From assembly GCA_000091205.1 (NCBI GenBank), contig AP006495.2: 64,000 nucleotides of DNA. One strand, written 5' to 3'. Every line of letters begins with the position of its first letter. Within the stretch, counting starts at the first letter, position 1. The position numbers and the translations under genes are program-made. Shown here one piece after another: positions 14,201 to 64,000 of this stretch. The notes beneath the pieces were generated by a model that was not told the origin of the DNA, made no database searches, and saw only the letters and a program-made list of their open reading frames with translations. Source of the DNA: Cyanidioschyzon merolae (lineage: Eukaryota).

Positions 14201-15059
14201 AACCCGATAAAGTCTTGTCTAAAAAAGAATGGGACGGTCTCCCGTAGACAGGCGCGATTTTTTCGTTGCCCATCCGTGCCGCTTCATCCCCGTTCATATG
14301 CACCGTGCGAAAAACGTCACATACTGTGGTATCTCATGGAGTATCGCCCAGAGAGCATTCGGATTGCAACGGAATAACAAGAAAACAGCCTAGTAGATGG
14401 TGTCGGATTGGTTCTTTTCGGGTGCACGACGCTCGGAATGAAGGATACGAGAACGATCGGTCATCCAAGTGCTGAATTTTGAACGAGCGACCTGGACAAG
14501 CGAGGTGTTCTCTTCGCAGGCGAGCGGCGACAGCATTACGTATTTGCACAGCGCCTTCGTCAATGAAGAGAGGACATACCTTCTGCCAGATACCTGAGAA
14601 AAAAATCAAACATAAGCAAAAGAGCTTCCCATTAAAGATAGGCGGGAATGCGCTTCGATCTCTGCGGTTCGACCGGTCGATGCTTCATCTTCAAAATTAC
14701 GAGATAAAAGAGCACAGCTAAGGTAGGCATAGGCCTGCAGCACCTAAGGGAGCGAAATGTTTCGCCTCTATAGAGTCTATATAGATATCTACCGACGCAC
14801 AGGCGCATCCTAGTCGTTTTTGACCGGCACCTGTTATCGGTGTCAGTTGCTCTCCCAGCACACTTCGAGACCGAGAGGCTGCCGCATAGAGTTGTATCGC
14901 GTCAGCCCCTCGGGTCTCGTCTTCAACAACGCACATCGTCTGATCTGGATAGCAGCACTGAAGTCTCGGCTCACGGAAACCATGCGTTTAGTTGCCTCTG
15001 TTTGAACTCACAAGTGCCAGGCGTCCTCGAACGAGCGCCCTCTGTGTCACCACAGTCTC

Positions 15060-16050
15060 GTAATCATCCCGTCAGGCAAACACGTTTTCTCGTCTATCTC
15101 CAATCGACATCTTCTTCTTCTTCGTTGCTTGCTCTTCTGCGCCTGATTGTCGCCGAGAAGGAGATCTTCCACGTTCTTTCCTGGCAGCCGGCGAAACGGG
15201 GCCTCCAGGATCCGCCACGCTCACTTCCATCACTTTATTTTGTTTTGAATATGAACCCGATGTCGAACGCGTCTGCCTTGAACCGCGAAGCATGACTTGA
15301 ATACACGAGTGTGAAGGCTGAAGCACAGCCGACTTGCCGGACGATACGTTGCAATGACTTTAACGCAAATACAGCTCGGACGTCAGAGGAACCCGCTCAT
15401 CATCATCGTGATCGCGTTTCTCCTCAACGGCGAGATACGCATCGCATCCCATGCCTGCCAGATTTGGAGGTGCGCGTATCGACCCCGCTATATAGAAAAA
15501 AGAACACAAACGAACATCTAACTAGCAACGAGATAACGATTTCTTTCCACCGCTACGATCAAAGTCAAACAGAGGAAACGTTTTCCGTATTGTCGAAAGT
15601 TTACCTTCCAGACGAAAGGTCCCGCAAGCCGGACGAGTCGATCGGGCTCTCGCGCCATATTCCTCCGTAGGGGCGGGTGCTGTAATGAGACCTGAGCAAC
15701 TCGTCGGCAACGCAGTTTATTCTGGGACTCGGAGCGGGTAGCCTGCGTCTGCGCGTCGCCCTGGTCGCAGTGGACTCCTAGCAGCTCGCTTCCCGCTGTC
15801 GCAGGCAGTGGATCTGTCAGCACATCTTCCATGCTTCCAGAATGCTGATGAATCTCGATTCCGTATTCACTGAATCATGCCGCAAGCGGACGCCCTCAGT
15901 AGTATCCCAAAGCGGCGCTGTCTCTGTGCTCCATCCGCACCATCTGTAGCGGTGCTATTGCGGGTGCTTACCGCGGGTACTAGATGCTCGACAGAACGTA
16001 CGAAACTACAAGTACGTACAGCAGAATGCATACGTAATGGGACTTGAAGA
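15060..16050 (-). mobile_element. Fragment E: solo ~1 kb 5' region of the element, lacking the nuclease ORF
   Basis: It is collinear with A 35990-36960 and with the B 5' region (e.g. ggtaaactttcgacaatacggaaaacg, ctgcgaccagggcgacgc, cgccggctgccag). There is no homology to ORF segment 1 beyond ~15060. It ends ~200 bp from the start of the 16261 gene. Confidence 0.5.
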
Positions 16051-16260
16051 AAGGATCCAGCATCATGGACGTTTTGTCGATTACCAATACCCATCCCACA
16101 GTCGGGGATCCGCGGTCCATCGAGACGTACTGCCGAATCGCACCAATCAGCGCAATGATCTCCTTGACGCCCGGTATTCGAGCTCCTTCTCTACGATCAG
16201 GAAACGTACGCTTGCAGCGCTGCGTTGCGGTAGGCAGTAGAAGCACGGAGCTCGTTACAA

Positions 16261-22300: not shown

Positions 22301-22970
22301 TGGAGCCTCCAGCGCACGCATTCGATCTTTCCCAATGCCGCAGACGTCGGCTTCGACGTACGGCAAGGTATTTTTTTGGCGGGCACTGAACGAGGTAGTT
22401 GCATATGGTTCATATCTATAAATAACTGTACATATGCATCCCCTGGCGCGAAAATCTCTTTCTCGCCTTCTTCCCCCAGGAATACATGCCCGTCACCAGC
22501 CGCTGGTTACCAAGATCAGCGCCGTTCGATCACCCCCAAGTACCGAGAACCATAGAGTTTAGCCCAGGATCCATGACAAGTTCAAACACAGTCTCTGACT
22601 CTTTCATACCTACCAGGCATCTTTCTTGAGTCCCTCTACCATGATATCATTTCCAAATATCTAAAGGACCAAATACGTCCATAAGCACCATCCCATCATT
22701 TCTATGCATCTCAGAAATCAAGCACCAGTACGTGAACGTACGATCCGATGAGCATTTTCGCGCCTTCTTTCAAACGTGTTGGCGCCTCCCGCGCATCCAT
22801 CCTGCAGAGCGCTGCGGCGCCTCGCGCGAAAGCCAACTGCCCTGGCGCCAATCGACGGACGCAGACCGCCGCTGGCGCTGTGCAAGAGCTCTCGAGCAAC
22901 AACAAGGTACGCGCTTGAACATTGTCGAAGTGGACTTCCCAGCAGAGAGAGCCGAAGATTTGAACCAGCA

Positions 22971-25406
22971 ATGGAGCGGTGTGTAGTGAAACGTGATGGT
23001 CGTCGACAGCCGGTAAAGTTTGACAAAATCACTGCGCGAATCAAAAAGCTGGCCTACGGTTTGGACCCGCTCGTGGACGTCACCGAGGTTGCGCAGAAGG
23101 TGTGCGCTGGTGTATACGACGGGGTGCATACCTCGGAGCTTGATGAGTTAGCTGCTGAAACTGCAGCGTACATGAGCACACGGCATCATGACTATTCGAT
23201 TTTAGCTGCGCGGATCGCGGTAAGCAACTTGCACAAGAACACCGAAAAGTCATTCAGTGCGGTGATGGAACGCCTATATGCCTACAGGTCTCCGAAAACG
23301 AACGATCCAGCGCCGCTGATTGCGAGCGACGTCATTGAAATAGTGCGCCGCCACGCCGAAACGATAGATGGCGCTATCATCTACGACCGCGATTTCTCTT
23401 ACGACTACTTTGGGTTCAAAACTTTGGAGCGCTCGTATCTGTTACGAATCGACGGCAAGGTGGTCGAGCGTCCCCAGCAAATGCTGATGCGCGTGGCGAT
23501 TGGCATCCACAAGGAGGACCTAGATGCCGCACTAGAAACCTATGACTATATGAGTCAAAAGTACTTTACGCATGCGAGTCCGACGCTCTTCAATGCCGGC
23601 ACACCGCGCCCACAGCTCAGTTCGTGTTTCCTCCTGAGCATGACGGAGGACTCCATCGAGGGAATCTATGACACACTGAAGCGCTGCGCAGTGATTAGCA
23701 AGAGCGCGGGCGGTATCGGTCTGGCGATCCACAACATTCGAGCAACGAAATCTTACATTCGCGGAACGAACGGATCGAGCAACGGTATCGTGCCGATGCT
23801 TCGTGTCTTCAATGACACAGCCCGCTATGTGGATCAGGGGGGTGGGAAACGCAAGGGCGCCTTTGCTGTATACCTGGAGCCATGGCATGCTGATATCTTT
23901 GAGTGGCTTGATCTGAAGAAGAACCACGGCAAAGAGGAAGCACGTGCACGAGATCTCTTCTATGCACTTTGGACGCCGGATCTATTCATGCGGCGAGTGG
24001 AGGCCAACGAACAGTGGTCCCTTTTCTGTCCGAATGAGGCGCCTGGTCTTGCGGATGTCTGGGGCGATGCGTTCGACGAACTCTATCAGCGCTACGAGGC
24101 TGAAGGCAGGGCACGAGAGGTGATCCCTGCGCGAAAGCTCTGGTTCTCGATTCTCGAGTCGCAGATTGAGACAGGCACGCCCTACATGCTCTACAAGGAT
24201 CATTGCAACCGGAAAAGTAATCAGCAGAATCTAGGCACGATCCGCTGCTCCAATCTCTGCACCGAGATCGTAGAGTACACTGCACCAGACGAGGTTGCGG
24301 TGTGCAACCTCGCGAGTATCGCTCTGAACAAGTTTGTGGTGCCAGGAGACCGTGAGCGCGGAACTTGTCCCGTATTTAACTTCGACGAGCTCGCCTTTGT
24401 GACTCGCATGGTTACCAAAAACCTGAACAAGATTATCGATGTGAACTTTTACCCCATTCCCGAGGCACAGAACTCGAATCTGCGTCACCGCCCGATTGGC
24501 ATTGGTGTCCAAGGACTCGCTGATGCCTTCATCCTCATGCGGATGCCATTTGAAAGCGATGAGGCTCGTGCGCTGAACCAGGAAATCTTCGAGTGTATCT
24601 ACTACAACGCATTGCAAGCGTCGATCGAGCTTGCGGAGCGCGACGGACCGTATGCCTCTTTCGAGGGCTCACCAGCGGCACGAGGACAGCTTCAGTTTGA
24701 TCTTTGGAACGTGAAACCGACTTCATCTCGTTGGGATTGGGATGCGCTTAAAGAGCGTATCACTCTTCACGGACTGCGTAATTCGCTACTGGTTGCCCCG
24801 ATGCCGACTGCGTCCACCTCGCAGATCCTGGGCAACAACGAATGTTTCGAGCCGTATACCTCGAATCTGTACACCAGGCGCGTGCTCGCTGGAGAGTTCA
24901 CCGTCGTGAATCAACATCTTGTCCGTGACCTGCAGGAGCTCGGCCTCTGGAACCCGCTCGTGAAGAACAAGATCATCGCCCACGGTGGCTCGATCCAGCA
25001 AATCCCTGAGATCCCCCAAGACATACGAGACCTCTATAAGACCGTCTGGGAGGTCAGCCAACGGCGCCTACTCGACCTGGCTGCTGATCGCGGTGCCTTC
25101 ATCGACCAGAGCCAGTCCCTGAACGTTTACATCGCGCAACCAACGATCGGCAAGTTGAGCTCGATGCATTTCCACGGTTGGCGTCTTGGCCTCAAAACCG
25201 GTATGTATTACCTCCGGACGCGACCAGCAGCTGATGCTATCAAGTTCACGCTCGATCAGCGTATTCTCAAGGAAGAGAACCACACCGCTGTCAATGGATC
25301 GCAACTGCCGTGCAATCTCACGCCGCGTACCAGCGCAGCTGAGCAGTTCGCTGCACTCGCCTGCTCCCTAGATAAGAAGGATGACTGCATCGCGTGCGGA
25401 AGCTGA
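22971..25406 (+). CDS. RNR1: Ribonucleoside-diphosphate reductase large subunit (class I R1)
   Basis: [31 protein letters not shown] matches the R1 N-terminal ATP-cone. The active-site block CSNLCTEI is present, followed by the C-terminal redox tail CIACGS. The ORF track starts at 22776, but the conserved R1 N-terminus begins at the internal Met ~22971. Confidence 0.9.
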
Positions 25407-25654
25407 GCTGTTACCGATGATCGACTCTAAACCGTCTCAAATTATCCCATGATCGACTAGGTATGTACCAGAGCGTCTTGACGAATACCTCTTGTCGTGT
25501 TGAGGCACTGATCAACGAGCTTTCTCGTGCCTGCTGAGCTGCAGGTGCAGCGGCACTGGATTATCCACTGGGCGTGTCGTGCGTACCGTGTGTGTCGAGT
25601 CTGGTGGCGGCAACACGTGCGCTGCGTACGTCTTGCCGCGGAAGTGACGAAATG

Positions 25655-26192
25655 CCAAGGTAGTGAGAAACGTAATCCCTGATAGCAAAATGTATATCTT
25701 CGTATTCAATACATGAACGCCTCTGATTCCCTTTGGAGAGAAGGACTATGCGAAGGCACTGAGAAACCTAATCCCTGATAGCATCATGTATATCTTCGTA
25801 TTCAATACATGAACGCCTCTGATTCCCTTTGGAGAGAAGGACTATGCGAAGGCACTGAGAAACCTAATCCCTGATAGCATCATGTATATCTTCGTATTCA
25901 ATACATGAACGCCTCTGATTCCCTTTGGAGAGAAGGACTATGCAGGCACTGAGAAACGTAATCCCTGATAGCATCATGTATATCTTCGTATTCAATACGT
26001 GAACGCCTCTGATTCCCTTTGGAGAGAAGGACTATGCGAAGGCACTGAGAAACCTAATCCCTGATAGCATCATGTATATCTTCGTATTCAATACATGAAC
26101 GCCTCTGATTCCCTTTGGAGAGAAGGACTATGCAGGCACTGAGAAACGTAATCCCTGATAGCATCATGTATATCTTCGTATTCAATACATGA
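25655..26192. repeat. Minisatellite: ~5.5 tandem copies of a 94-97 bp unit
   Basis: The unit is ggcactgagaaac(c/g)taatccctgatagcatcatgtatatcttcgtattcaatacatgaacgcctctgattccctttggagagaaggactatgc(gaa). Unit starts are at ~25754, 25851, 25945, 26041 and 26135. The units are contiguous with no unique spacers. The array is intergenic between RNR1 and the 26265 gene. Confidence 0.85.
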
Positions 26193-26264
26193 AACAATGC
26201 CGTCTCACACCCGAAATCAATTCCGACCGCCTGGCTGCAGCTTGGCCTCGGACCGGGTCAGGAG

Positions 26265-35521: not shown

Positions 35522-37088
35522 AGCAGTCTCACTGTTCGGTTCGTTACAGACAATCCTTCTGTTAGGGATTAAGAAACGCTCCCCAAAATCACCCACGTTG
35601 AGAAAGAAAAAAGAAAACTTGCCTCCAGAGGCTATGCAACGATAGCTTCTAGAGACGTTTCGAATGGTGGCATGGCCTCCGAACCGTTGTACCCCGTGGC
35701 AAGATCGAGTCTGTACATAATTATCCAAAAGTTGAAGGCGCTCGATACGCCGGACAGCGCTGCGCGGCGCTGCTACCGGGACACGTTGCGGCTATCGCGC
35801 GATCGCGTATCGCGTGACTGTCGATTGAATCCTTTTTGTCCAGATATATTCCTTATTTGGACAGAGCGATATGGACGCAGGTTGTTTTTTGATGGCAAAA
35901 CGCTGATATGGACCATGGATGCCAGTCTGGGGGATAGATATTGCAACAAATGAAAGCGCTCAGCAATGTTCACTCTCGTTCCGAGTTCCACGACGCACAT
36001 TTTCGCACGGCTATACTGGTCGCTTTGCACGTTCCCTGGTGCGCCGCATACTGGCAGTGAGCACCCGCAATAGAGCCTATGCTGCTCGTGCGGATACTGA
36101 ACGGAGACAGAGCGGCTTTGCTATATCAGTGGGGGTGTCGGCTCGATGCGTGGTGCATTCGACACGGAACCAGGGTACATTATCATTCTGGGGCCTGCCA
36201 GCTGCGAATGCAGACCCACTGCCTGTGGCAGCGCGAATTGATTCGCAGGGAGTCCTCTGCGACCAGCACGACGCCCAGAAGGAGCTTATCCGCTCCGAGT
36301 CCCAGAGTAACCCGCGTTTCGGACGAGTTGCGTAGACCTCACTACAGCACTAGGGACTGGGGGAAGCGTGAAGCACGAGCCCGGGAGACTCTTGCGGCTC
36401 GCGGGACCCTCTGCTTCTACGGTAAACTTTCGACCATACGGAAAGCTTTTTGCCCCTTTTGACGTTTATCGTAGAGAGGCAAAGACATCTTTATATCGTT
36501 GCTAGGTAGTAGTGAGTTTCAGTTCTACGTTCGATATAGTGCGGTCGGTTAGCGCTCCTCCGTATTCAGCATGCATGGGACACGACTCGCATGTCGTCGT
36601 TGAAGGGAAACACGATCCTAACTATTCGTTGACTTGCTATTCTACAGTACAAGATCTATTTGCGTGAAAGTCGTAGCAAAGTATAGCTTTCAATTCAATC
36701 GCGTGTCAAGCCTCAACTAAGTGTATTCAAGTGATTTTTTGCGGTTTATAGCAGAAGCGTTCAACGTGCGTTGTTTATCCAAAATTAAAAAATGGGAATA
36801 GTATAGAGAAGGAGGTGGAGGATCCTGCAGGCCGAGTGTCGCCGGCTGCCAGAAAAAAACGGAAAATAATGCCGAGTCCAGAAGAAAAGGAGGAGAATAA
36901 GAAGCAAGGGAGGGAGCCCCCGTAGTCAATGGCTGCACGAAAGACGACACTGCGACGACATGGTAGTCGAAGCCTGTCTTCCCAAACATATCAAGGATCC
37001 CTACAAGCAAAAGATGCGAGAGGCCATCAGAAGCCGTATCCATTCGTACTCCAGGTAGGTTCATAAGGTTTCTGGAGGACTGAATCAT

Positions 37089-38931
37089 ATGTTGAGGGAG
37101 ATATACGATGACGTTACGGACACCAAACCGGTCGAGGTTCCGGAAGAATTTTTCGACAAGACCTTTATTCGTCACCTGATGGTTAGAACAGGAGAAACGT
37201 CGGGGGGAAATGATGGAGTGCATGCACTCCACGAAAACTACGCAGAATACCACTCCAATGGTACTCGATACAGCGTTCACCCGTGTATTTACGAATACGG
37301 GGCGAAGAAGTACCTCACGAACCTGAAGAACCATATGACGATGAACCTCGAACGTTTCATGATACGCACCGTGTTTGCACTTTATCCGGGCCTGTCTTGC
37401 AATAGGATATGGGGCATCATCGAAATCATCTCGAACGATCGTCAACATGAAGATGAGATCGAATTCGTCGACAAGAAGACATCACGCAGGAGAAAGAATG
37501 AGGATTCTGTAATCCGTACGGTTATGCAAGAGCACCGTGCGGTACTGGGCTGGCGAATCCAACAGACAAGATATCAGAGTTGAAAAAAGATAAGGAAAGA
37601 TACTATCGCCTCGTCCCGCGCCATGTTGTGTTTCTGGACCGAGAACTCGAACGCAAGGCAGAGGTGAAGCTGGGTGAGGAAAACAATGAAGAGTGGGAGA
37701 AACGGAATGCAGTCCTAATGGCGAAGCGCTTCAACGTGGTTCCAATGTGCAAGATCAAGTCACATTTTATGACTATCGACTTCGGCGTCCTTTACGGCAT
37801 AATGAAGGAGATCAGTCCGGAGTTCAATGTTAGTAGGGAGGAACTCTCCGGTGAAAACCGGGATACGTACAGTAAGAAGAATATCTTCTATTTCAAACGT
37901 CTCAAAGTGAGCAAACAAAAGGTATTTGCTGGGTTGATCGAAATCGATGGAGTAGTCATGTGTGTACACTATCGGCGGTTGACGAAAGATCGTCCAGTCC
38001 CGCCCTCTGCTGCGCCCTCGACGAAGCATGAAGAAAACGAACAAGCGGATCCTGCGACCGAGAAAGTGCGAGGTACCGACTTTGACGTTGGCACGGACCC
38101 CGGCAACGCAAATATCATAAGCATCGCAGAACCCAAGCGTGCCGTGCGGAAGATGGTATTGACGGTAAATTACGTCGGAAAGGCATGCGTCTTTTGACAT
38201 CCTCGAGAGCAAGATACTATCGAGAATCGGGAATCATGAATGCGAAGAACAAATTCGACAAATAGAATTCAGGAATGAAAGAACACCTGGAAGCTTTGAG
38301 CGAGGTGACAAGCCGAGGAGCGGACTTTGAAGCTTTTCTGAAATTCGTGGAAGTTCGCGTTGCTCATTGGGATGCGCTATGGAAAGAGTACACCAAGCCC
38401 AGTTGGGCTCGTCTGCGTATGAATCTATACGGTGGGAGGCAGCGGGCGATCGCGAACTTTTTCAATCAGTTGAGCGCCTTGAAGGAGAATGAAAGTCAGA
38501 AGCTTGTTGTAGCATACGGAGCAGGGCGCTGGAAGACCCAAAAGGGGTGTATGCCAGCTCCGACGACGAGGGTGAACAAGGAGTGCGCAAGGCGTTTCAT
38601 TACGATACCCGTAGATGAGTTCCGAACATCGTATACACACCATGAACTGGGGTGTACATTTCAAAGAGTGGAGCTGGAAAAGTGTCAATGGAGCCCTGAG
38701 GAAATCGCAAAGTACGGACTGCTGACGGAGGAGCAAAGGGAAAGGAGGGCAAAAGTTCAAGGGCTACTCGCACTGGTGAGTACAACCAGTGACGGCAAGA
38801 AACGTATGGAGTTTGTGAACCGAGATTTTAACGCCGCTCTCCATATACGGAGATGTGCGGTGCTGGAGGAAAACCCCCAGAGTAGACAAGAGGGAATTTT
38901 GATGGAGAACCTCTCAAGTCGAACTATATGA
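37089..38931 (+). pseudogene. TnpB/Fanzor-like RuvC nuclease ORF (copy A), split into three frames (37089-37583, 37580-38197, 38275-38931)
   Basis: RuvC-I-like [19 protein letters not shown] is present. The zinc-finger region IPVDEFRTSYTHHELGC...C follows. The RuvC-III motif KKRMEFVNRDFNAALHIRRC is present. A frameshift relative to copy B lies at AEPKRAV/EDGID. Confidence 0.6.
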
Positions 38932-39090
38932 GAAAAAATTGGAAGCAGTAGTAGGTGGCCGGTCCAAAAAAACTGGGAGGCGTCTGCACGTCAGTTGGAG
39001 ACGTTTTGTCTAGGGCGCGTTCACCGCCACTACTGTACACCGTTGGCGTCGTTCGAGTGCGAAAGGCGTTTGCAGTTGGCTTCGTCACGC
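38932..39090 (+). ncRNA. Candidate guide-RNA (omega-RNA-like) scaffold / right-end block of the TnpB-like element
   Basis: The ~150 nt immediately 3' of the ORF stop is the best-conserved part of the element across A, B and C (gcagtagtaggtggccggtcc ... ggcgtctgcacgtcagttggag ... gtctagggcgcg ... gccactactgtacacc ... ggcgtcgttcgag). The internal complementary arms cagtag..gtggc / gccactactg can form a ~10 bp stem. Confidence 0.35.
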
Positions 39091-53149: not shown

Positions 53150-54040
53150 CTAGTTCCCAAAGGCGCCCAGCAGTTGCTCAACAGCAGGCTTGACACGTTT
53201 TTCATACCAGGACGGATCCGGACAGAGCTCCTGGATTTTGCGCGCCATTGCTTGCCAGCCGTCTTTAACACGGCTCAAATCCAGCCCAAGTTCATGGTAG
53301 AGCTCCAGTAGTAATGCAACGTTGCGTCGGTGCAAAAAGTCAACTGGCGGTGCATTCTCCTCCTGAGCCAGCACCGCATAACTCACAATGCGAAGCTGAT
53401 CGCGCATGTCGTTGGCGAGCTGTTCCTCGATGGCTTCGGTGCGGCTCAGCGTTGCCAGATTTTTTCCCTCGTAGCATTCTTTCTTCACCCTTGCAGCCGC
53501 AATGCCAGCTTCGATGATCGCCTCCGCATTGGTCGTAATGACTGCCGCCACGTCAGCGCCCTGAAAACTCCTCCTACCACGATATGACTCAATCTCTTCG
53601 ATAGGGACGAACATCAGCGCTGTATCATTTTTCCGGCAGGTGTTCGCGGCTTCTGTATGGAAGCCGTCACCACACCGAAGAAGCGACTTGTGACTGCGCA
53701 AAAACGCCCGCAGGGCCTGCGCACGCCTCGACATGTGATCCGTCTTTGGGACCGAAGTTGGAGCGGGCGCACCATTGTTCTGGGAAGCAGCACCAGCGCC
53801 GTCACGCGGGCCGGCACCCACCGGGAACGGTGGAGTTAATGTCGAGGTGATCTGCAGCGCCCGACAAGCACGCTTTGCGTTCGCCAACGAGCATGGGGAA
53901 ACCCGCCGGAGCGACCTCCCGTGCGAGGAAAGCCAACGGCTACTCCAAACGAAGCCAGTCGACGCCTTCCTAACCAACGCTACACTTGAAGCCTTTCGAT
54001 GTTTCGGTGAATAATGCAAAAAAATGTTTGTAAAAGCCAT
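53150..54040 (-). CDS. Hypothetical conserved protein with Arg/Ser-rich N-terminal presequence
   Basis: The ORF track gives 53150..54067, apparently with a non-ATG start. The first ATG gives MAFTNIFLHY... The N-terminus looks like a mitochondrial presequence. The internal block RCGDGFHTEAANTC...VITTNAEAIIEAG is unassigned. Confidence 0.35.
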   Translation of the reverse strand: MAFTNIFLHYSPKHRKASSVALVRKASTGFVWSSRWLSSHGRSLRRVSPCSLANAKRACRALQITSTLTPPFPVGAGPRDGAGAASQNNGAPAPTSVPKTDHMSRRAQALRAFLRSHKSLLRCGDGFHTEAANTCRKNDTALMFVPIEEIESYRGRRSFQGADVAAVITTNAEAIIEAGIAAARVKKECYEGKNLATLSRTEAIEEQLANDMRDQLRIVSYAVLAQEENAPPVDFLHRRNVALLLELYHELGLDLSRVKDGWQAMARKIQELCPDPSWYEKRVKPAVEQLLGAFGN

Positions 54041-54049
54041 GTTCGAGCG

Positions 54050-54195
54050 CACGACACGCACCAACAAACGCCCCTCTAAAGTCGAACGACGCCAGCGGTA
54101 TGCAGTAGTGGCGTGTGACGCGCCCTAAACAAGACGACTCCAACTGACGTAGAGACGCCCACCAGGCGTTCTCGGCGGTCCATGTACTAATGCTT
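54050..54195 (-). ncRNA. Candidate omega-RNA-like 3' block of copy B
   Basis: It is homologous to 38932-39090 (ggcgtctctacgtcagttggagtcgtcttgtttagggcgcgtcacacgccactactgcataccgctggcgtcgttcgac). Confidence 0.3.
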
Positions 54196-56082
54196 TCAAT
54201 CATGTCTCATATAGTTCAACATTGGGAGGTTGTCCAATAAAGTTCGCTCTTGTCCATTATGAGGTCTTCTTTCCATCACCGCACATTTGTTTATATTAAT
54301 TGCGCCATAAACATCTCGGTTCACAAACTCCATACGTTTCTTGCCATTAGAAGTTGTACTTTCTAATGCGAGCAATCCTCGAACAATCGCCCACCTTTCC
54401 ATTTGCTCTTCCGTCAGCGCTCCGTACGTTTTTATATCCTCAGGGCTCCGCTGGCACTTTTCTCTTTCGGCTCTCTGAAGTGTACATCCCAACTCGTGGA
54501 TTGTATACGATGTTCGGAACTTATGTACAGGTATCCTAGCGAAACGCCTTGCGCAATCCTTATATATTCTTGTCGTGGGAGCTGGTGTAGTCCCTTTTTT
54601 GGGCGCCCAGCGCCCTGCTCTGCACGCTACTACGAGCTTTTGACTTTGATCCTCTTTGAGGGCACTGAACTGATTGAAAAAGTTGACGAATCCACGCTGC
54701 TTCCCACAGCACAGATACATTCGCGATAGAGCCCACATGGGCTTTAGATATTCTTTCCAAAGCGCCTCCCAATGAGCAACGCGAACTTCCATGAATTTCA
54801 GAAAAGCTTGAAAGTCTGCTCATCGGATCGTCAGCTCGCTCGAAGCTCTCAGGTGCTCCTTGATTTATGCATTCCATGTCTCAGTTTTCTTCCTCGCATT
54901 CTTTATACCGGATTCTCGATAATATCTAGTTCTTGAGAACCTCAATAGACGCATGTCGCTCTCACGTAAGCTGCCGTCAATGCCATCTTCCGCACGCTTG
55001 GGAGCAACGATGGTTATGCTATTCGTATTCGCAGGGTCCGCCCCAACGACAAAGTCGTTATCCTGCACCTCCTGCGTCGCTGGATCTGCCTCTTTGATTT
55101 CTTCATGCTTCGCAGAGGGCGAAGCGAAAGGCACGATAGGACGATCCATCTTCAACCGCCAATAGTGCACACACATGGCTACACCATCGGTTTCGACCAT
55201 CCCAGCGAATACCTTTTGTTTGCTCACTTTGAGACGTTTGAAATAGAAGATACTCTTCTTACCGTATGTCTCACGGGCTTCACCGGAGAACTCCTCCATT
55301 GTAGCATCGAACTCGGGACTGATCTCTCTCATGATGCCATGAAGGGTTCTGGAGTCGATACTCACAAAATGTGACTTGATGTTGCACATTGGAACCACGT
55401 TGACGCGCCTCCCCATTAGAATAGCCTTCCGTCTCTCCCACTCTTCATTTGTCTCTACACTCAGCTTCATTTCCGCCTTGCGTTCGAGCTCTCGGTCCAG
55501 AAACACGAAATCGCGCAGAATGAGGCGATAGTATCTTTACTTGTCTTTTTTCAACTCTGATATCTTGTCTATTGGATTCGCCAACCCCAGTACCGCACGG
55601 TGCTCTTGTATAACCGCACGGATCACAGAAGCTTCATTCGTGCTCCTGAGTGACGCCTTCTTGTCGACGAATTCGACCTCATCTTCATACTATCGATCGT
55701 TCATGGTGCCATTGATCATCGCCCATATTCCTTTGCGAGAGACGCCCGTGTGGAGTGCAAACACGGCGCATATCATGAAACGTTCGAGGCTCTCTGTTAA
55801 ATGGTTTTTCAGGTTCGTAACGTACTTCATCGTTCCGTATATGTAAATATTCGAGTCACCCTTGCATCGAGTACCCTCGAAGCAGAATTCCGCGAAGATT
55901 TCGTGAAGAGTGCGAACCAGCTCATTTTCCCTCTGCGCTTTCCCTGTACCAAGCATCAAGTGACGAATATGTGTCTGGTCGAAGAGCTTGTCCGGAAGCT
56001 CGACCGTTTCCATGTGCGTCACGTCGCGATACGTCTGCATCACCAAATGCATCAGTCCTGTCGACGCCTTGACAATACTCAT
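54196..56082 (-). pseudogene. TnpB/Fanzor-like RuvC nuclease ORF (copy B), single frame interrupted by stops plus one frameshift
   Basis: The segments 55690-56082, 54865-55506 and 54196-54792 share a frame. The motifs [37 protein letters not shown] and EFVNRDVYGAININKC are present. A 1-nt deletion near FVF/LDRELERK was seen by manual translation. Confidence 0.6.
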
Positions 56083-57413
56083 GGAGTACGAGTTGACATG
56101 TTTTTTGATAGTGTCTCGAAACTTTTTCTTATATGGATATTCTTTATACGTTTACGAAGACCGGCGTTCACCACCATGTTGTCATAAAGTAGTCTTTCTT
56201 GCATGCATCGACGTAGGGCCTCCCCCTTTTGCTTCTTCATCTCCCCCTGTCCTCTGGACTCCACACTGTTTTCGGTATTTTTTTTCCGGCAGCCGGCGAT
56301 AATGGGCCTACAGAATCGTCGACTAGCTTTTTCATAACTTTCTTTTTTTAGCTTTTCTTCTCAAAACAGAACTCTCTTTGAACGCGTCTATTATGTGTTG
56401 CGAGAAAACTCTTGAATACACTTGTCTTAGGTTCGAAACACATATGAACTGAAAAACTGTACTTTGCTAGGGCTCGAACGGAAATCCAACTATTACAGCT
56501 AAACAACACGCTCCTGATCACGATAGCGTTTTCCTTCAACATCGGCGGCATTCGCGTCGTGTCTCATGCCTGCCTGATTTCCCACGGGTGCTAACCGATA
56601 GCTCTATTTAGAACAAAGAAAAAAGAACAGAGACTCGCAGTCCGCGAGCAACGATATAGCGATTTCGTACCCGCTCTACAATAAACGTTGAAAGAGGAAA
56701 ATCATACAGAATTTTAGAAAGCTTACTTTCCAGGCGCAAGGTCCAGCGAGCCGGACGAGTATGCAAGGCTCGTGCTCCATGCTCCCCCAGTGGCAAGCGC
56801 TTTAGTGCGACCTGACCAACTCATGCACCAAGCAGTTTATTCTTGCGCGAGGAGCGGGTATGGTGCAAGTGGTCATCGCATTGCTCGAAGATGATTCCTA
56901 GTATATTGCTTCGCGCTGCCGCAGGCTGCACGTCTGTCTCCGCAGTTTGCAGGCTCCCTGAATGATAACGAGTCCGGATTCCGTCTCAGTGGAGCCACAC
57001 CTCGAGACGACGCCCTCAGTAGTCTCGCAAAGCCATTCTTTCGCTGTGATGAGGCTGCACCTTCGGTGTAAGCAATAGGGAAGGCTCGGCACGCTAGAGA
57101 ACTACAAAACGGCCAGCACATCTCGAACGAATTATAGGTAATGGAGTTTGAAAGTAGGCTGAAGAATATCGAGCGCTTTCATTTCTTTCAATATTCATTC
57201 CGCTGTCAGCGATCCATAAAGCAAGTCAACATTTTATCATCAAATGAAACGCCAGAATCAGGTGCTCACCATTTAGGAACACGCGCCGACGCAAATATCG
57301 CCGCCGTTGGTCGGCAGGTACGGCCCGACCTCGCGGGGCAGGCTTCAACTTTGCTGAACGTTCGCTGAACCTCACGTTTCAATTTCTTTAAAGCGTCTGC
57401 TGAGGCTTGTCCA

Positions 57414-58460
57414 ATGGTTGACGAGAAAGGCGATCTCTGTTTATGGGAGCATCTGGTGGCTGGCGGCGGGGCGACACTCTCCGCCGTCAGCGTTATGCAC
57501 CCGTTGGACACGATCAAAATCTACATGCAACGCGCTCAGGTGGCAACCGCAGGCGGCAGCGCTAACGTCCGGCCGACAATGCTCGGCGCTGCGCAAGAAA
57601 TCTTGGCTCAAAGAGGGCCCGGAGGATTTTACGCCGGCCTAGGTGCCAATCTCAGCGGGCAAGTGCCAGCAGGCGCGATCAAGTTTGCAACTTACGAGCT
57701 GCTGAAGCAACACGCCGTGCAGAAGCGGCTCCCGGCTGCAGCACAGGGTTGGGGCGAAGTCGCCTCTGCAGCGCTGGCGTTTCTGGCCTGCTCTGTAGTT
57801 CTGGTCCCCGGTGAGGTCGTAAAGAGCCGCCTCCAGGCCGGTTTGTATCCGAGCTTCCGCGAAGCGCTTCTGCGTATCATTGAGCAGGATGGCGTTTCTG
57901 GACTCTACAGGGGCTACTGGGCCACAGTTACGCGTGACGTCCCGTATACGATGCTCGAGTTTGGGCTATACGAGCAGTTTAAACGAGCGTGCATGTGGTC
58001 TGTTAAGCGCGATCGACTACATTCCTCAGAGGAATGGACCATGGGTGGCCTCGCTGGCGGCGTAACCGGTTGGTGTACCACCCCGCTCGATGTCATTAAG
58101 ACGAAACTCATGACGTGTGCACGCTCGCAATACCGCGGCTACTGGGACGCCGCTCGTGACGTTTGGCATCGAGAAGGGCTGAGCGGCTTCTTCACCGGGG
58201 GACTCGCCCGCGTGCTGTGGTTGGTCCCGTTCACAGCGGTGTTCTTCGGCAGCCATGAGATCATCAAGCGATTTTTACGAAGTCGTAAGCGGCAATATTC
58301 TACGTTGCGAAGCACCAGAATCCCTCGGATGGATCCGGAGGCGTCTGCGTCCTCTAACTGCACCTGTCGATACAAGTCCATCAAGTGGTTCGGATCGAGT
58401 ACTCTTATCTGTGACGTCCGGATCAAGCCTGCGTATCGCTCGCCTCGACATCCGTTCTAG
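57414..58460 (+). CDS. Mitochondrial carrier family protein (possibly S-adenosylmethionine carrier-like)
   Basis: Three MCF repeats are present, with PLDTIKIYMQ and PLDVIKTKLM signatures. GFYAGLGANLSGQVPAGAIKFATYE resembles SAM-carrier/PET8-type carriers. The ORF tail beyond ~aa 300 is probably read-through into the 3' flank. Confidence 0.75.
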   Translation: MVDEKGDLCLWEHLVAGGGATLSAVSVMHPLDTIKIYMQRAQVATAGGSANVRPTMLGAAQEILAQRGPGGFYAGLGANLSGQVPAGAIKFATYELLKQHAVQKRLPAAAQGWGEVASAALAFLACSVVLVPGEVVKSRLQAGLYPSFREALLRIIEQDGVSGLYRGYWATVTRDVPYTMLEFGLYEQFKRACMWSVKRDRLHSSEEWTMGGLAGGVTGWCTTPLDVIKTKLMTCARSQYRGYWDAARDVWHREGLSGFFTGGLARVLWLVPFTAVFFGSHEIIKRFLRSRKRQYSTLRSTRIPRMDPEASASSNCTCRYKSIKWFGSSTLICDVRIKPAYRSPRHPF

Positions 58461-58684
58461 AAATCTGCTTCACGGGAATGATGCCGTTGTACGCAAACAG
58501 CGCAAGCCTGTTTTCGACACTTTGATTGTGCCGCGTTGCAAAGCGTACCTCATGGCGACCGCCTTCCCTCTCGGCAAGCACTCGAACACCATTGACATAG
58601 GATCACGCCCGTGTTTACCGAATGCGTCGCGACTCCATCGTACTAAGGATCCAAGCGATATCCTCTCCCGAAGCAAGCTAATAT

Positions 58685-60667
58685 TCAGCTATCCGCTAAG
58701 TTCGTATTCGCGTCTAGGGGCCGCCAGCCAAGGTCTTGCAAGGCCGTCAAAGAAGCCGATACGCTAGAGCTCCGCCAGCGCGGCGACTTCCAGATCGAGC
58801 CGCCCCGAGTCTCCTCCGTCCAGAGCGGAGCACCGGTATCCCCAACGTGATAGCTGTTCTCGATTCGTACGTTCGTTACACCGATCTGGGCAAACGCTTT
58901 CGTCAGCTGCGCGAAGGGATCCTCGGTGACGCTCCAGTGCGGATCCGCAATGGATACCGAGCGCCCTGACGACACCGAATGTGAGATCGGTGAGTTATCG
59001 GGCAAGCATGGGTTCCCCGTCGCTGGTTTCCTTCGTTCGCCAACAGCACCGAGAGAGACAGAACAAGAGCGCCTAATCGCGCCGCTTGCCATTTGAATTG
59101 CCGGGTCCCAGGAGATGAACGCCTGCTGTGTCAACGGTTCGACCTCTGGGTGTAGCGCTGTACGATTACCTGTAGCGTCACGTTCTGACAAAGAAATACG
59201 CTCGTATTCGTCAAAAGAACGCCATGCGTTGACCATAGCCCCTGATGCTTGAGGCGGTGCCCCTTCGGCTGCATCACCCACAAGCCTTGTTGAGCGTTCT
59301 GAGGCCGCGCGCGTCCCCAGGCCGGGCTCCGCATGCCACGACAAGGGCGAACTGCTTCCCCAGATGCATCCAAGCTTAAACAGATCGTTCTCTCTTGCTG
59401 CACTAATCTTGGGAGAGGCGAACTCGTCAAAGACGAAGTCGTCCTCATTTGGACCCGCCTCGGCACCCGAGATACTCCCTGCGTCCTGCCTCGCATCGAT
59501 ATCAGAGAGCGGCTGCAGCGTCGCGTTGGAGCAGGGCTTCTTCGTCTGCGTACAGGTCGCGGATCGAAACGCATGCAACGGTGGTGGAGGCCCGTACCTA
59601 CTCTGGAGAAAAGCCTCCCGGGATATGGCATCTGTGTTGGAGGCAAACTCATGTCGGTATAAACACGCGGGATCCACGCAGCGTTTCTGGGTCGGTGGCT
59701 GCGGCGGTTTTGCGCCGTTGGATGCCCGCTTTCGAGATATGACCTTTGCGCCGGCGAATGCAACCGCTACCGTATCGCTTGCATCGAGTGGCCTTATTGA
59801 CGGGTTCCGTCCAGATGTCCATTGTGCAGACTCAATCTGGCTCTGTTTCCATTCAACGAATGTTTTCAGGTATTGCTCACAGGCCTGGACAAATGCCTCA
59901 CAATAGCGCACCGTGCCATAGGAGACGTGCACTTCATGGCCTTGCCAGCGCGCCCCGTCGTAAAGCTGTATTGCGCGGGTGGCTGCCGCCTCATCTGCAT
60001 ACTCCACATAGACGCCAGTTCCCTGGACAAAGAGAACTCGTTGGATTCTCCCCGTCTTTCCGAACATGTCCGAGCGCCGAATTGTGTGCTCGGACCAGAG
60101 AGATTGGTGCAATCCACGAATGCAGATCAAGTTCCGCTGCACGATAAAGGTCTGACGCATTGTTCGTATCCGCTTGGCGAGCTCGTACTCCCGCTGCTCC
60201 TGACGTTCCCTCTCTAGCTGTTCTTGGCGAAGCTGTCGCTCCTTTTTGCGCCTGTTTATTTCACGTAGTCGTTCCTTCTCTGCAAGACGTTCATCACTAA
60301 GCTCCTCGCGGAGTTGAAAGCGGCTCTCGTCGTACGGCGTCCGGCACGCGGGGCACCGGGGGACCTGGCCCTCCTCGCACGCTGTGCGAAGGCGACTCAG
60401 GCACCACAGGCACACTTGATACCCGCACGCGCAAGGAAAGAATGCTTTCTCTGCGGCATCCAGTTCCTCAAGGCAGAGCGGACACTCGCTGCTCTCTTCC
60501 GAAGGTTCGCAAGGTGCCTCATCGGCTGACTTTCCAGAAGCGTGACGGTGCGTAGCCTGGCGCCGCGTCCGTCCGTTTCTTGCCCGCCCGCCTGTCGGCT
60601 GCCTAACGCGTTTCAAAGAAAAAGAACTGTCAGAGGTATCCACAAGTTTGGCACCGCTGAACGCCAT
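58685..60667 (-). CDS. CCR4-NOT complex subunit 4 (NOT4/MOT2)-like RING E3 ligase with RRM
   Basis: The N-terminal C4C4 RING CPLCLEEL...FPCACGYQVCLWC...CPACRTPY is followed by a coiled-coil and an RRM-like block (TFIVQRNLICIRGL...GKTGRIQRVLFVQ), which is the NOT4 architecture. Its start codon abuts the 3' end of repeat copy C. Confidence 0.65.
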   Translation of the reverse strand: MAFSGAKLVDTSDSSFSLKRVRQPTGGRARNGRTRRQATHRHASGKSADEAPCEPSEESSECPLCLEELDAAEKAFFPCACGYQVCLWCLSRLRTACEEGQVPRCPACRTPYDESRFQLREELSDERLAEKERLREINRRKKERQLRQEQLERERQEQREYELAKRIRTMRQTFIVQRNLICIRGLHQSLWSEHTIRRSDMFGKTGRIQRVLFVQGTGVYVEYADEAAATRAIQLYDGARWQGHEVHVSYGTVRYCEAFVQACEQYLKTFVEWKQSQIESAQWTSGRNPSIRPLDASDTVAVAFAGAKVISRKRASNGAKPPQPPTQKRCVDPACLYRHEFASNTDAISREAFLQSRYGPPPPLHAFRSATCTQTKKPCSNATLQPLSDIDARQDAGSISGAEAGPNEDDFVFDEFASPKISAARENDLFKLGCIWGSSSPLSWHAEPGLGTRAASERSTRLVGDAAEGAPPQASGAMVNAWRSFDEYERISLSERDATGNRTALHPEVEPLTQQAFISWDPAIQMASGAIRRSCSVSLGAVGERRKPATGNPCLPDNSPISHSVSSGRSVSIADPHWSVTEDPFAQLTKAFAQIGVTNVRIENSYHVGDTGAPLWTEETRGGSIWKSPRWRSSSVSASLTALQDLGWRPLDANTNLADS

Positions 60668-60823
60668 TCAAAAGTCGAACGATGCCGAAGGTGTACAGTA
60701 GTGGCGGCAAACGCGCCCTAGACAAGACGTCCTCAGGCGACGTGCAGACGCATCTGTCTTTTTCGACCGGCCACCTACTACTGGTTCCAACTTTGTCTCA
60801 TACAGTTCCACTTTGAGTGATTG
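60668..60823 (-). ncRNA. Candidate omega-RNA-like 3' block of copy C
   Basis: ccagtagtaggtggccggtcg...gtctgcacgtcgcctgaggacgtcttgtctagggcgcgtttgccgccactactgtacacc...ggcatcgttcgac is nearly identical to copy A. It ends at the NOT4 ATG. Confidence 0.3.
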
Positions 60824-62852
60824 TCAAGCAAAGTCCACTCTTGGCCACTCTGGAGGTCTTTTCTCCAGCACCGCACATTTCCTTGTATTGATTGCGGCAT
60901 TAAAGTCACGATTCACGAAATCAATCCCTTTCTTGCCACTATTAGTTGTACTTAATAATGCAAGTAGCCCACGAACTTTTGCCCTCCTTTCCATTTGCTC
61001 ATCCGTCAGCGGTCCGTATTTTGCTATTTCCTCAGGACTCCGCTGACACTTTTCCATCTCCACTGTCTGAAGTGTACAATCAGTCCATGGTGCGTATAGG
61101 ACGTTCGGAACTCATCCACAGGTACTGTAACGAAACGCCATGCGTATTCCTTGTACGTCCATGTCGTCGGAGCTGGCGAAGTCCTTTTTGGGTCTTCCAG
61201 CGCCTTGCTCCGTACGCTACTACCAGCCTATGGCTTTCATCCTCCTTCATGGCACGGAACTCACTAAAAAAGTTCGCGACTGCACGCTGCTTCCCACAAT
61301 ACAAATTCATACGCAAACGAGCCCACCGGGGCTTTGTATTCTCCTCCCACAGCGCATCCCAACGAGCAACGCGAACATCCATGAATTTCAGAAAGAGGTT
61401 ATGTCCGCGCCGCGGCTCGTCACCTCGCTCAAAGCTTCCAGGTTCTCTTCCATTCATGCATTTCAGCTTCCAAATTTCTTCCTCGCATTCTGTATAACGG
61501 ATTCTCGATAGTATCTTGCTCTCGAGAGCCTCAACAGACGCATGTCTTTCTGACGTAAGTTACCGTTAGTACCATCTTCCGCACGCTTGGATATTGCGAT
61601 TGTTATGATATTCGTGATCCCAGGGGTTAAGGCCGACGACAAAGTCGTTTTCGTGGGGATTATACGTTCCATGGCTGGTCTTTTTGTGTTTGTCCTTCGG
61701 CAGGGGCGAAATGAAGACGGGATAGGGCGGCCTGCCTTCAATCGCCGGTTACGTAGACATATGGAAACCCCATCGTTATCGATGGCTCCCGTGAGCACCT
61801 TTTTTTTTTTGGTCGGCCACGGACGCTTGAAATCGAAATTATTCTTCCAGTAGGTTTCCGGTCTTCGCTGGTGACCTCTTTGTTTCTTAAATCGAGCTCT
61901 AGAGAGATCTCATTGCTGAAGGCTCAAAGGGCTCTAGAGTCGATATTCACAAAATGTGACCTGAACTCGCATAACCGGAAGGCAATGAAGCGCATCCGGA
62001 GAAGCTCATCAATGCCGGTCCTCCAATCCGTCATTCTTTCCACACTCAGATCCATGTCGGCCTTGCGTTCGAGATCTCGGTCCAAAAACATATAGTAGGG
62101 CAGGAAGCGGGGGTAACATCCCTCTTCGTTTTTTCAGATATCTGACAATTTTTCTCTTGGGTTGAAATGCCCCAAGACCGAACGATGCTTTAGAAGAGTC
62201 GCGCGGAAAACAGAAGCCCTATTTTTGGAACTGCATGATGTCCGCTTGTCGACGAATTCGATCTCTTGTTCATGCTCGCGATCGTTCTTGATACCATCGA
62301 AGATTGCCCCTATCCCTTCGCGGAACATGCCCGAGAACAGCGCCAAGAAGATGCGTAGCAAAAAATAGTCGATGTTTACGATCTTATACTTCCTCACATA
62401 CGTGAGGTAGCTCATTGCCCTGTAATCGTTAATGTCTGCGTTACTCTTCGTCCAGCACCGTTGAAGCGGTATTTGGAATAATTTTTGAGGAAAGCATGAA
62501 CTCGCTCATTTCTCCAAGATATATCTCCACAGCAGCATCAGGGCGGATGATGAAAATCTTTTTGAAAAATTTTTCCGGAAACGTTACTTGTTCGACGTGG
62601 GTTTCGACGCGATGCATCTCCCCATTCCAAACGCATCAGTCGAAAAAGAAGCGATACAAACATACCTTGAGCAAGATGCTCCATGATTTCTGACGGCCTC
62701 TCGCAACTTTCCTTTGTACGGATTTGTAATATGCCCAAGACGACGGGATTTAAACACCACTTCTTCGCTCTGTCGTCTTTCATGCAGTCTTTGAGGTTGG
62801 GCTCTAGTTTCTTGCGCGTCTTCGTCTTACACGGTTCTTCTACACTCGGCAA
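60824..62852 (-). pseudogene. TnpB/Fanzor-like RuvC nuclease ORF (copy C), heavily frameshifted
   Basis: The RuvC-III motif GIDFVNRDFNAAINTRKCAVLEKRP is present. ITNIITIAISKRAEDG is a frameshifted RuvC-I. An N-terminal segment EIEFVDKRTS is shared with copies A and B. Confidence 0.55.
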
Positions 62853-64000
62853 AGCTCTTTGTTCGCCCCCGACAGCCGGAAATACCGGCCATCCGAAACA
62901 TCACTACCTCGAGTACCATAAGTACGGATTATTTATAAAAAACACTTTGCACGCTTCTGCATTAAACGGCGGAATATCAGGTATATACTTTTACTTGAAT
63001 ATTGAAACAGTATTGAAGAGAAACATATATTTTGCCACGATTTCAACACAAACACTACATGCCCCTATACAGCTGGTGATCAAAAAGTAGTCATTCTCGC
63101 GATTATGTTCACCGGCGAGACATATTGAGTATTCTGACACCCAAAAAAAGTGGAGCGCGTACGGGCAAAAAAACGCAGAGAAGAAAGAGAAACATAAAGA
63201 TTAAAGACACCGAGTTAGCAGTTTCACTTCATAACTATGGTAAACCTTAAAAAGAGAAACGTTTTGGGTATGGTCTAACAATTACCTTAGAGATGGAGAG
63301 ACCTACAAACCGGAAGACGCAACCTGCCCTTGCACTAAATGAGCCAGACTGGCAAGAAAGTTGACGCACCTGAAAATCTCGTACGAATCGCGTTTGGTTC
63401 TAGGACTAAGAGCGGGTGTGCTGCGTATCGCTGTCACCTTGGTGGCGGTGGAATCTTAGCACATGGTTTCGCGCCACCGCAGGCAGAAGCACTAAATTTC
63501 ATGCTTGAGGGCTCCCAGAAATATAAAATAGCCCTGATTTCTGGTCGCGAGAGCGAAGCCTCCCCCGAAGCACTCAGTGGAATGCCGAAACTGTCCAGTT
63601 TCAGTAGCGCATCCGCATCAGCTATACAGATGGTACGGCGCATGTTCAGGCAGGGATTTGGCGTAAAAAGGAAGCGTGAAACGGACAGTAGAGCCAAGAC
63701 TAAATAAAGGCGATGGTACGAACAGTGATTCTTTGGCATAATAAACGCATTCCCGACACCAATATCGATCCGGGGATCACATCTATCTGGTCATTGAACG
63801 ATTTATCAAAGATACAAACCGTTACACGGGAAGGAATTCCTTAATGGATATTCTGTTCTAGGCATCACGATGAGCGATACATACAAACACAGTTCATGAT
63901 ACCGAGAAACTTCCCTAGTGACTCTAGTACATTAAACATCGCAATGACAAATGCTCCCGCGCTATAACCAAATACCGGATAGAATCGGGGGAATGGGGGG

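Follow-up and report, generated by a model that had tools for sequence, protein, structure and literature searches.

Five dead insertions of a Fanzor1-encoding repeat, almost certainly CMe-1A, in 64 kb of Cyanidioschyzon merolae nuclear DNA

Repeat copies and the decay of their reading frame

The DNA considered here is a 64-kb stretch of the nuclear genome of the hot-spring red alga Cyanidioschyzon merolae 10D, called the window throughout. Fanzors, the RNA-guided nucleases of eukaryotes, are relatives of TnpB and Cas12. Comparison of the window with itself reveals one dispersed repeat family of five copies, A to E, three of them full-length (~3.2 kb) and two partial, which were mapped with blastn, tblastn, and the self-comparison. 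What is left of a Fanzor1 gene lies in these copies, and the family is almost certainly CMe-1A, known since 2013. An earlier reading of this DNA, made without database searches (the sequence-only reading), had proposed a family of TnpB/Fanzor-like elements here and had taken the genome to be eukaryotic, which is correct for C. merolae 10D.

The coordinates of the copies and of the features of copy A are collected in Table 1. The left end of copy A was set from its alignment with B, C, E, and eight environmental copies, and the right end (...GAAAGGCGTT in copy A) from an alignment of 41 copies, across which it reads ...GTCGTTCGACTTTCGAA(A/C)GGCGTT. DNA identity between copies is 70–74% over 2.1–3.0 kb. 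Copy E retains the 5′ module and the leader (16148-15172), followed by the final ~60 codons and the 3′ end (15059-14791). The sequence-only reading had placed copies A, B, and C at 35750-39090, 54050-57350, and 60660-64000; the repeat does lie there, and those bounds are good to about 100 nt. For the two partial copies, it had seen the repeat and misjudged its extent: copy E is larger than the 15060-16050 given for it, and only a fraction of the 1-1000 assigned to copy D belongs to the family.

Table 1. Positions of the repeat copies in the window and of the parts of copy A
Feature	Position	Strand	Size, content, or basis
Copy A, full-length element (almost certainly CMe-1A)	35880-39070	+	3191 bp; self-blast
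Copy B, full-length	54067-57252	-	3186 bp, 74% identical to A; blast, translation
Copy C, full-length, most decayed	60660-63820	-	3161 bp, 72% identical to A; blast, translation
Copy D, old C-terminal fragment only	642-967	+	consensus amino acids 579-660, 46% identity; blast, translation
Copy E, internally deleted derivative	14791-16148	-	blast
5′ module of copy A	35880-36547	+	alignment of 32 copies
Non-coding leader of the Fanzor core	36548-36868	+	opens with short palindrome CGGTCGGTTAGCG (consensus CGCTCGGTGAGCG); alignment
Fanzor1 pseudogene of copy A	36869-38931	+	ATG at 36869; translation and tblastn
RuvC-I motif, catalytic Asp in DPG (FDVGTDPGN)	38081-38128	+	aligns with DPGR of PpFz and DPNK of SpuFz
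Canonical RuvC-II position, LVVAYGAGRW	38503-38532	+	Gly in place of the TnpB catalytic Glu; alignment
IPVDEFRTSYTHHELGC, alternative (rearranged) RuvC-II Glu, then degenerate zinc-ribbon region	38605-38655	+	hidden Markov model (HMM) alignment
RuvC-III motif FVNRDFNAALHI	38812-38847	+	aligns with NRD of PpFz and SpuFz; weak Pfam TNB match
3′ terminal block, consensus reading-frame tail and ~50 nt non-coding	38905-39070	+	alignment

Since the consensus frame reaches a TAG near the right end of the element, about 50 nt before it, the ancestral protein was about 700 amino acids long. The frame opens at the ATG of copy A and comprises about 690–750 codons in full, so the open reading frame (ORF) of ~590 amino acids that the sequence-only reading had attributed to the copies was too short.

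Frameshifts and stops were counted from three-frame translation and from tblastn with an intact relative. These counts confirm the decay of all copies that had been suspected from the letters: every copy in the window is disabled, a pseudogene. Could at least one of them still be a functional RNA-guided nuclease? Copy A keeps all three catalytic residues, and dN/dS (the ratio of nonsynonymous to synonymous substitution rates) among the copies is 0.43–0.52, which is below 1. Against this, copy A has three frameshifts (just past the ATG, near 37545, and at 38143) and two in-frame stops. Copy B has one frameshift and four in-frame stops, and its alternative RuvC-II Glu has become Lys (VHKFRTS, 54484-54534); copy C has at least five frameshifts and at least eight stops, and its RuvC-I Asp has become Asn (FVVGLNPW, 61620-61643). 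Copies D and E are fragments, the former with three stops in 111 codons and with the RD of RuvC-III changed to QR, and no ORF within the window spans RuvC-I to RuvC-III. A surviving nuclease among the five is therefore very improbable and, at the sequence level, refuted; only errors in the finished genome sequence or programmed frameshifts at three sites could rescue it. The description of these copies as a candidate programmable nuclease does not hold, all of them being dead. The dN/dS values are consistent with master copies whose protein was once under purifying selection and with neutral decay afterwards.

The suggestion that intact members may exist elsewhere fares better. Of 72 related environmental loci, L001 alone still has a full-length ORF (752 amino acids) that is free of interruptions and carries the three catalytic motifs, and some CMe-1A copies of C. 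merolae have been reported still to encode an intact Fanzor1 (PMC3627910).

Assignment of the encoded protein to Fanzor1

Direct searches are of little help in placing the protein. Pfam scans of single ORFs and of a repaired 678-amino-acid consensus gave nothing significant; fragments and consensus together yielded only Cas12f1-like_TNB, at a sub-threshold E of 0.77, on RDFNAAINI. A phmmer search of the consensus against the PDB sequences returned nothing relevant. These blanks are what could be said for a coincidental resemblance to TnpB/Fanzor motifs, in which the ORF would come from an unrelated repeat protein. Profile search, profile–profile comparison, and fold search, however, all point to Fanzor1 only, as set out below, and the scarcely credible coincidence is refuted.

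In metagenome data from JGI and ENA, the consensus found 50 close relatives; the same search also brought up an intact relative, P0051 (662 amino acids, 30% identity), and a Haematococcus protein. A profile built from five sequences retrieved 3296 representative clusters at E ≤ 1e-3 among 1.84 billion proteins, the best matches being typically about 600–650 amino acids long; against the PDB, its sole match up to E 10 was SpuFz1, at E 0.027. A larger profile, A2, built from 64 family members and run against all PDB sequences, matches exactly three of them, and all three are Fanzor1 proteins: PpFz1 of Parasitella (1.7e-21), SpuFz1 of Spizellomyces (1.3e-14), and GtFz1 of Guillardia (7.6e-12). 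The Pfam Cas12f1-like_TNB family, sub-threshold for the consensus, is matched by 13 of the 64 members (best E 2.1e-8). The window sequence itself belongs with this profile, as the uncorrected ORFs of copy A at 37580-38197 and 38275-38931 match A2 with probabilities of 99.7% (E 6.7e-27) and 100% (E 6e-51). Many relatives carry PF26935 (DUF8286) as a precomputed label, weak where it is graded, and this family never appeared in our own Pfam scans.

The predicted fold leads to the same proteins. The closest intact relative, P0001, was modelled with AlphaFold2 from an alignment of 46 sequences (mean predicted local distance difference test score, pLDDT, 81.1; predicted template modelling score 0.77), with pLDDT below 50 at residues 192-205 and in a repeat insertion at 378-470. 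When this model was compared with the PDB by Foldseek, the top seven matches, which are all those at E ≤ 0.001, were Fanzor1 structures from cryogenic electron microscopy, with E values from 4.8e-16 to 4.1e-13. The best was SpuFz (4.8e-16, target-normalised template modelling (TM) score 0.69), with PpFz and GtFz next; Cas12 variants and ISDra2 TnpB followed with weaker scores. By sequence profile and predicted fold, then, the encoded protein is a Fanzor1. An HMM search and a structure prediction were the two checks that the sequence-only reading had put forward for its TnpB/Fanzor identification. The identification withstands both, the first by way of the 64-member profile and in spite of the sub-threshold direct Pfam result, the second through P0001.

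The alignments also clarify the catalytic motifs. The RuvC-I Asp (D414) is invariant in 64 relatives, as are D621, N623, and N627 of RuvC-III. At the canonical RuvC-II position there is a Gly, and a second Glu (E579, in VDEFRTS), ~33 residues downstream of the canonical site, is again invariant in the 64 relatives; in the HMM alignment it falls on LIDEFRTSSFCPKC of PpFz and LLDEYKTSSVCPRC of SpuFz. Replacement of the canonical RuvC-II Glu by Gly or Pro, accompanied by an alternative conserved Glu, has been reported for Fanzors by Jiang et al. 2023 (PMC10530073). The ancestral protein had a complete rearranged RuvC triad: Asp in DPG, Glu in DEFRTS with Gly at the canonical site, and Asp in RDxNAAxNI. 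The three hallmark motifs named in the sequence-only reading are all present in copy A, in the order claimed, and the HMM alignments put them on RuvC-I, the alternative RuvC-II, and RuvC-III. The middle one, IPVDEFRTSYTHHELGC, named there as the zinc-finger region, carries the alternative RuvC-II Glu, and the zinc-ribbon region that follows is degenerate.

In comparison with the three characterised Fanzor1 nucleases, SpuFz1 (8GKH, 9CEU-9CEZ), PpFz1 (9CF0-3), and GtFz1 (9CER-T), the family has a similar predicted fold (target-normalised TM score 0.5–0.69), a collinear profile match from the REC/WED region to RuvC-III, the same DPG, DE(F/Y)(R/K)TS, and NRD motifs, and the same rearranged RuvC-II glutamate. 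It differs from them in that sequence identity is only 13–16%, the CxxC pairs of the zinc ribbon are missing (HH..C..C in the CMe copies, no Cys in P0051), and, unlike the characterised nucleases, the C. merolae protein has no known guide RNA or target-adjacent motif. Furthermore, Spu-1 elements have inverted repeats, whereas CMe-1A does not.

The TnpB of IS200/IS605 elements (ISDra2, 8H1J) and Cas12f share with the family a split RuvC domain with identical motif order, and IS200/IS605 elements resemble it further in the 3′ end from which a guide RNA is expected and in having subterminal palindromes in place of terminal inverted repeats (TIRs). IS200/IS605 TnpB, however, has the canonical RuvC-II Glu and about 400 amino acids, against about 700 here, and it comes with a Y1 TnpA partner and a prokaryotic host, neither of which the window element has; the fold matches at E 0.09, a weak score, and the sequence does not match significantly. 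A rival reading makes the element a Fanzor2/IS607-type or prokaryotic TnpB insertion, arrived by recent horizontal transfer or contamination, with no resident Fanzor1 family. The presence of TnpB (8h1j) among the weaker fold matches is in favour of this. Nevertheless, all significant PDB matches are Fanzor1, with none to Fanzor2 or TnpB; there is no serine recombinase and no TnpA; the copies are old, as their mutual identity indicates, and are set between bona fide C. merolae genes; and Bao and Jurka classed the C. merolae protein as Fanzor1 (PMC3627910). We consider such an origin highly unlikely and retain the assignment to a resident Fanzor1 family.

Three further observations concern the relatives. 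In P0001 (~378-470), and also in P0007 and P0010 (loci L001, L015, and L018), RuvC-I is immediately preceded by two to five tandem units of ~23 amino acids, each a duplicate of the stretch leading into the RuvC-I strand; copy A has one. The gene for P0051 (L002, 412-3541) lies directly downstream of a DDE_3 (Tc1/mariner-type) transposase gene, with an overlap of 47 nt, so that a DDE transposase accompanies other branches of this Fanzor1 clade. P0052 (Haematococcus lacustris QJQ45_000102) joins an N-terminal RVT_1 segment to a Fanzor-like C-terminal region (DPG, DEFRTS, RD), the result of either nested insertion or an error in joining the gene model.

Element anatomy and identity with CMe-1A

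The similarity common to all 32 aligned copies starts only at about position 36548 of copy A. Upstream of this boundary, which is 668 bp from the left end of copy A, there are at least 4–5 unrelated sequence classes of 5′ module; A, B, C, and E share one. Because these classes are unrelated upstream of the boundary, the conserved unit would be a 2.5-kb Fanzor core with interchangeable 5′ modules. The 5′ module of the window copies also occurs apart from the core in related loci, and it is inverted in L053 and L056. Of the conserved flanking non-coding blocks mentioned in the sequence-only reading, the 5′ one is largely a separate module that is missing in many relatives.

The 3′ terminal block closes in an imperfect palindrome (39045-39070), and most of the block doubles as the tail of the consensus ORF. 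In TnpB and the characterised Fanzors, the 3′ end supplies the guide-RNA scaffold and the adjoining DNA the guide (PMC10530073, PMC10432273), and by analogy we propose the 3′ block as a candidate scaffold for a putative guide RNA (fRNA/omegaRNA). The final 169 nt of the consensus reach -63.9 kcal/mol on folding (z -2.5), and the fold includes an 11-bp terminal hairpin. Searches of the window with Rfam (gathering thresholds) and ARAGORN returned no RNA genes.

One Fanzor1 family, carried by CMe-1A, was described in C. merolae by Bao and Jurka 2013 (Mob DNA 4:12, PMC3627910). According to these authors, CMe-1A numbers about 150 copies, which individually show about 80% identity to a consensus of about 3 kb; it has no TIRs, its target-site duplications (TSDs) could not be determined, its transposon class is unknown, and its 5′ 635 bp are 95% identical to the repeat TE-N2_CMe. 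Rhodophytes are likewise among the Fanzor hosts listed by Jiang et al. 2023 (PMC10530073). The family in the window agrees in host, in a length of ~3 kb, in being an old, diverged, multi-copy repeat without TIRs, and in its single Fanzor1 ORF; its module boundary may be the counterpart of the ~635 bp shared with TE-N2_CMe, and the 5′ module of copy A is probably that TE-N2_CMe-like part. The variable 5′ modules of the environmental relatives, the terminal hairpin, and a dN/dS of about 0.45 go beyond the published description, as modest and in part uncertain additions. A literature search found no paper on the biochemistry of the C. merolae Fanzor1. A comparable case, likened here by description only, is the green alga Auxenochlorella, in which the most abundant repeat of the nuclear genome is an unclassified Fanzor-encoding element (PMC12633428).

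We therefore read the locus, with a probability of roughly 0.93, as holding five dead CMe-1A insertions; CMe-1A would be an old interspersed repeat that lives in the nuclear genome of C. merolae without a transposase and has a Fanzor1 as its sole gene. No result speaks against this identification, but it has limits. The canonical CxxC...CxxC zinc ribbon is absent; copies A–C have only HHxxxC...C, and the clade consensus and P0051 are without the zinc-ribbon cysteines. The fold evidence comes from P0001, an environmental relative 82% identical to the window consensus. The probable identity with CMe-1A is drawn from host, copy structure, length, divergence, lack of TIRs, and modular 5′ end. As for the 3′ end, this set of sequences lends a guide RNA no support: RNAalifold recovers no more than an 8-pair stem (-3.25 kcal/mol); covariation does not exceed that of shuffles (pairs 83.4% versus 83.1%, the observed score being reached in 38 of 500 shuffles); and the region is not extra conserved, with identities among copies of 0.69–0.83 versus 0.75–0.85 in the ORF. 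With regard to the first of these points, the zinc ribbon is degenerate rather than absent, and its state does not outweigh the evidence from profile and fold.

If an intact element behaves as the characterised Fanzor1 and TnpB systems do, transcription of its 3′ end would yield a guide RNA whose scaffold is element sequence and whose guide comes from the DNA next to it. The Fanzor–RNA complex would then cut matching DNA beside a short target-adjacent motif, and the cutting would probably aid the persistence of the element or its self-copying by homologous repair. To move to new sites, the element would need a factor provided in trans, since it brings no transposase, lacks TIRs, and shows no detectable TSD.

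A Fanzor family specific to one genome could, in principle, yield new editors, since its members are RNA-guided nucleases. C. merolae grows at about 45 °C and low pH, and a Fanzor from this alga could be heat- and acid-tolerant. Such value lies in the CMe-1A family, on record since 2013, rather than in the five broken copies.

Mobility and genomic surroundings

How does such an element move? A TIR search found no inverted repeat pairing the two termini of copy A, no TSD was detectable, and there is no transposase ORF in or beside any copy in the window. One possibility is that the carrier is a non-autonomous single-stranded-DNA element of the HUH type, either Helitron-like or IS200/IS605-like, in which the mobile unit is the 2.5-kb core (36548-39070) with hairpins in the same orientation, and the variable 5′ modules would come from end bypass or adjacent insertion. 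This would fit the lack of TIRs, noted both here and in PMC3627910, and the sharp, conserved right end that closes in an 11-bp imperfect hairpin. It would also fit the short palindrome CGCTCGGTGAGCG at the left boundary of the core and the meeting of at least 4–5 unrelated 5′ modules, one of them inverted, at a single boundary; moreover, an association of Fanzors with HUH transposases, Helitrons among them, is on record (PMC10432273). On the other hand, no Rep/Hel or Y1 gene is seen near any copy, the ends are without the Helitron TC...CTRR signature, and the flanks are without a fixed A|T target. The boundaries are, in addition, blurred by 20–30% divergence, and the palindromes are short and without compensatory changes. 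On balance, an HUH-type carrier is doubtful.

In a broader form, the proposal would be that the transposase-less core is the true mobile unit and spreads by a single-strand (HUH/Helitron- or IS200/IS605-like) or even a Fanzor-dependent route. We would give this only a slim chance; were it so, it would bear on how transposase-less Fanzor1 elements reach ~150 copies with their ORF still under selection.

Two arrangements in the environmental loci concern the relation of core and module. In L020 (~3600-3800) and L033 (~1760-1960), a TE-N2-like left end occurs ~45 nt downstream of a CMe-1A right end, and in L053 and L056 (~2400-2600), the inverted TE-N2-like module abuts the core boundary. CMe-1A and the TE-N2-like repeat seem to associate repeatedly.

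The DNA immediately 3′ of the terminal GGCGTT (39071-39085, 54052-54066, and 60645-60659 in the window, and the flanks of L001-L073) is G/T-rich in ~40% of copies, as judged by eye from ~25 aligned flanks, in forms such as GNTGGTG, (GGT)n, and (GGCGGT)n. In a logo of the flanks 3′ of the right end, G and T are weakly favoured and no target motif stands out clearly. Two explanations are open to the G/T-rich flank, a degenerate tail belonging to the element or a preference for such targets; should there be a guide RNA, its guide region would lie here.

The genes around the copies include those for starch synthase, IRE1, ribonucleotide reductase, GatA, DDX31, SLC25, and CNOT4, and five flanking proteins exactly match C. 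merolae 10D entries (BAM81139, BAM81142, BAM81147, BAM81150, and BAM81151) on an 866,983-bp chromosome. An exact look-up of the acid phosphatase returned no entry. The long ORFs without introns had first pointed to a trypanosomatid, a host that the starch synthase and IRE1 genes speak against. Host genes on the same strand follow immediately after the right ends of copies B (54067) and C (60660-60667): CNOT4 has its annotated start codon (60667) within the final 8 nt of copy C, and the ORF at 53150-54067 has its first ATG ~27 nt beyond copy B. Eight JGI contigs (L074-L081), only 3.4–3.8 kb long, carry exact SLC25 and CNOT4 genes (57414-60667 in the window). They end ~50–450 nt from these genes, where copies B and C begin, so that the presence or absence of the insertions cannot be read from them; assemblies of related populations break at the repeat.

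Elsewhere in the window, a 96-bp tandem array (25652-26193, 5.7 copies, 96% matches) begins about 250 nt past the end of the gene for ribonucleotide reductase alpha (22776-25406) and is unrelated to the Fanzor repeat.

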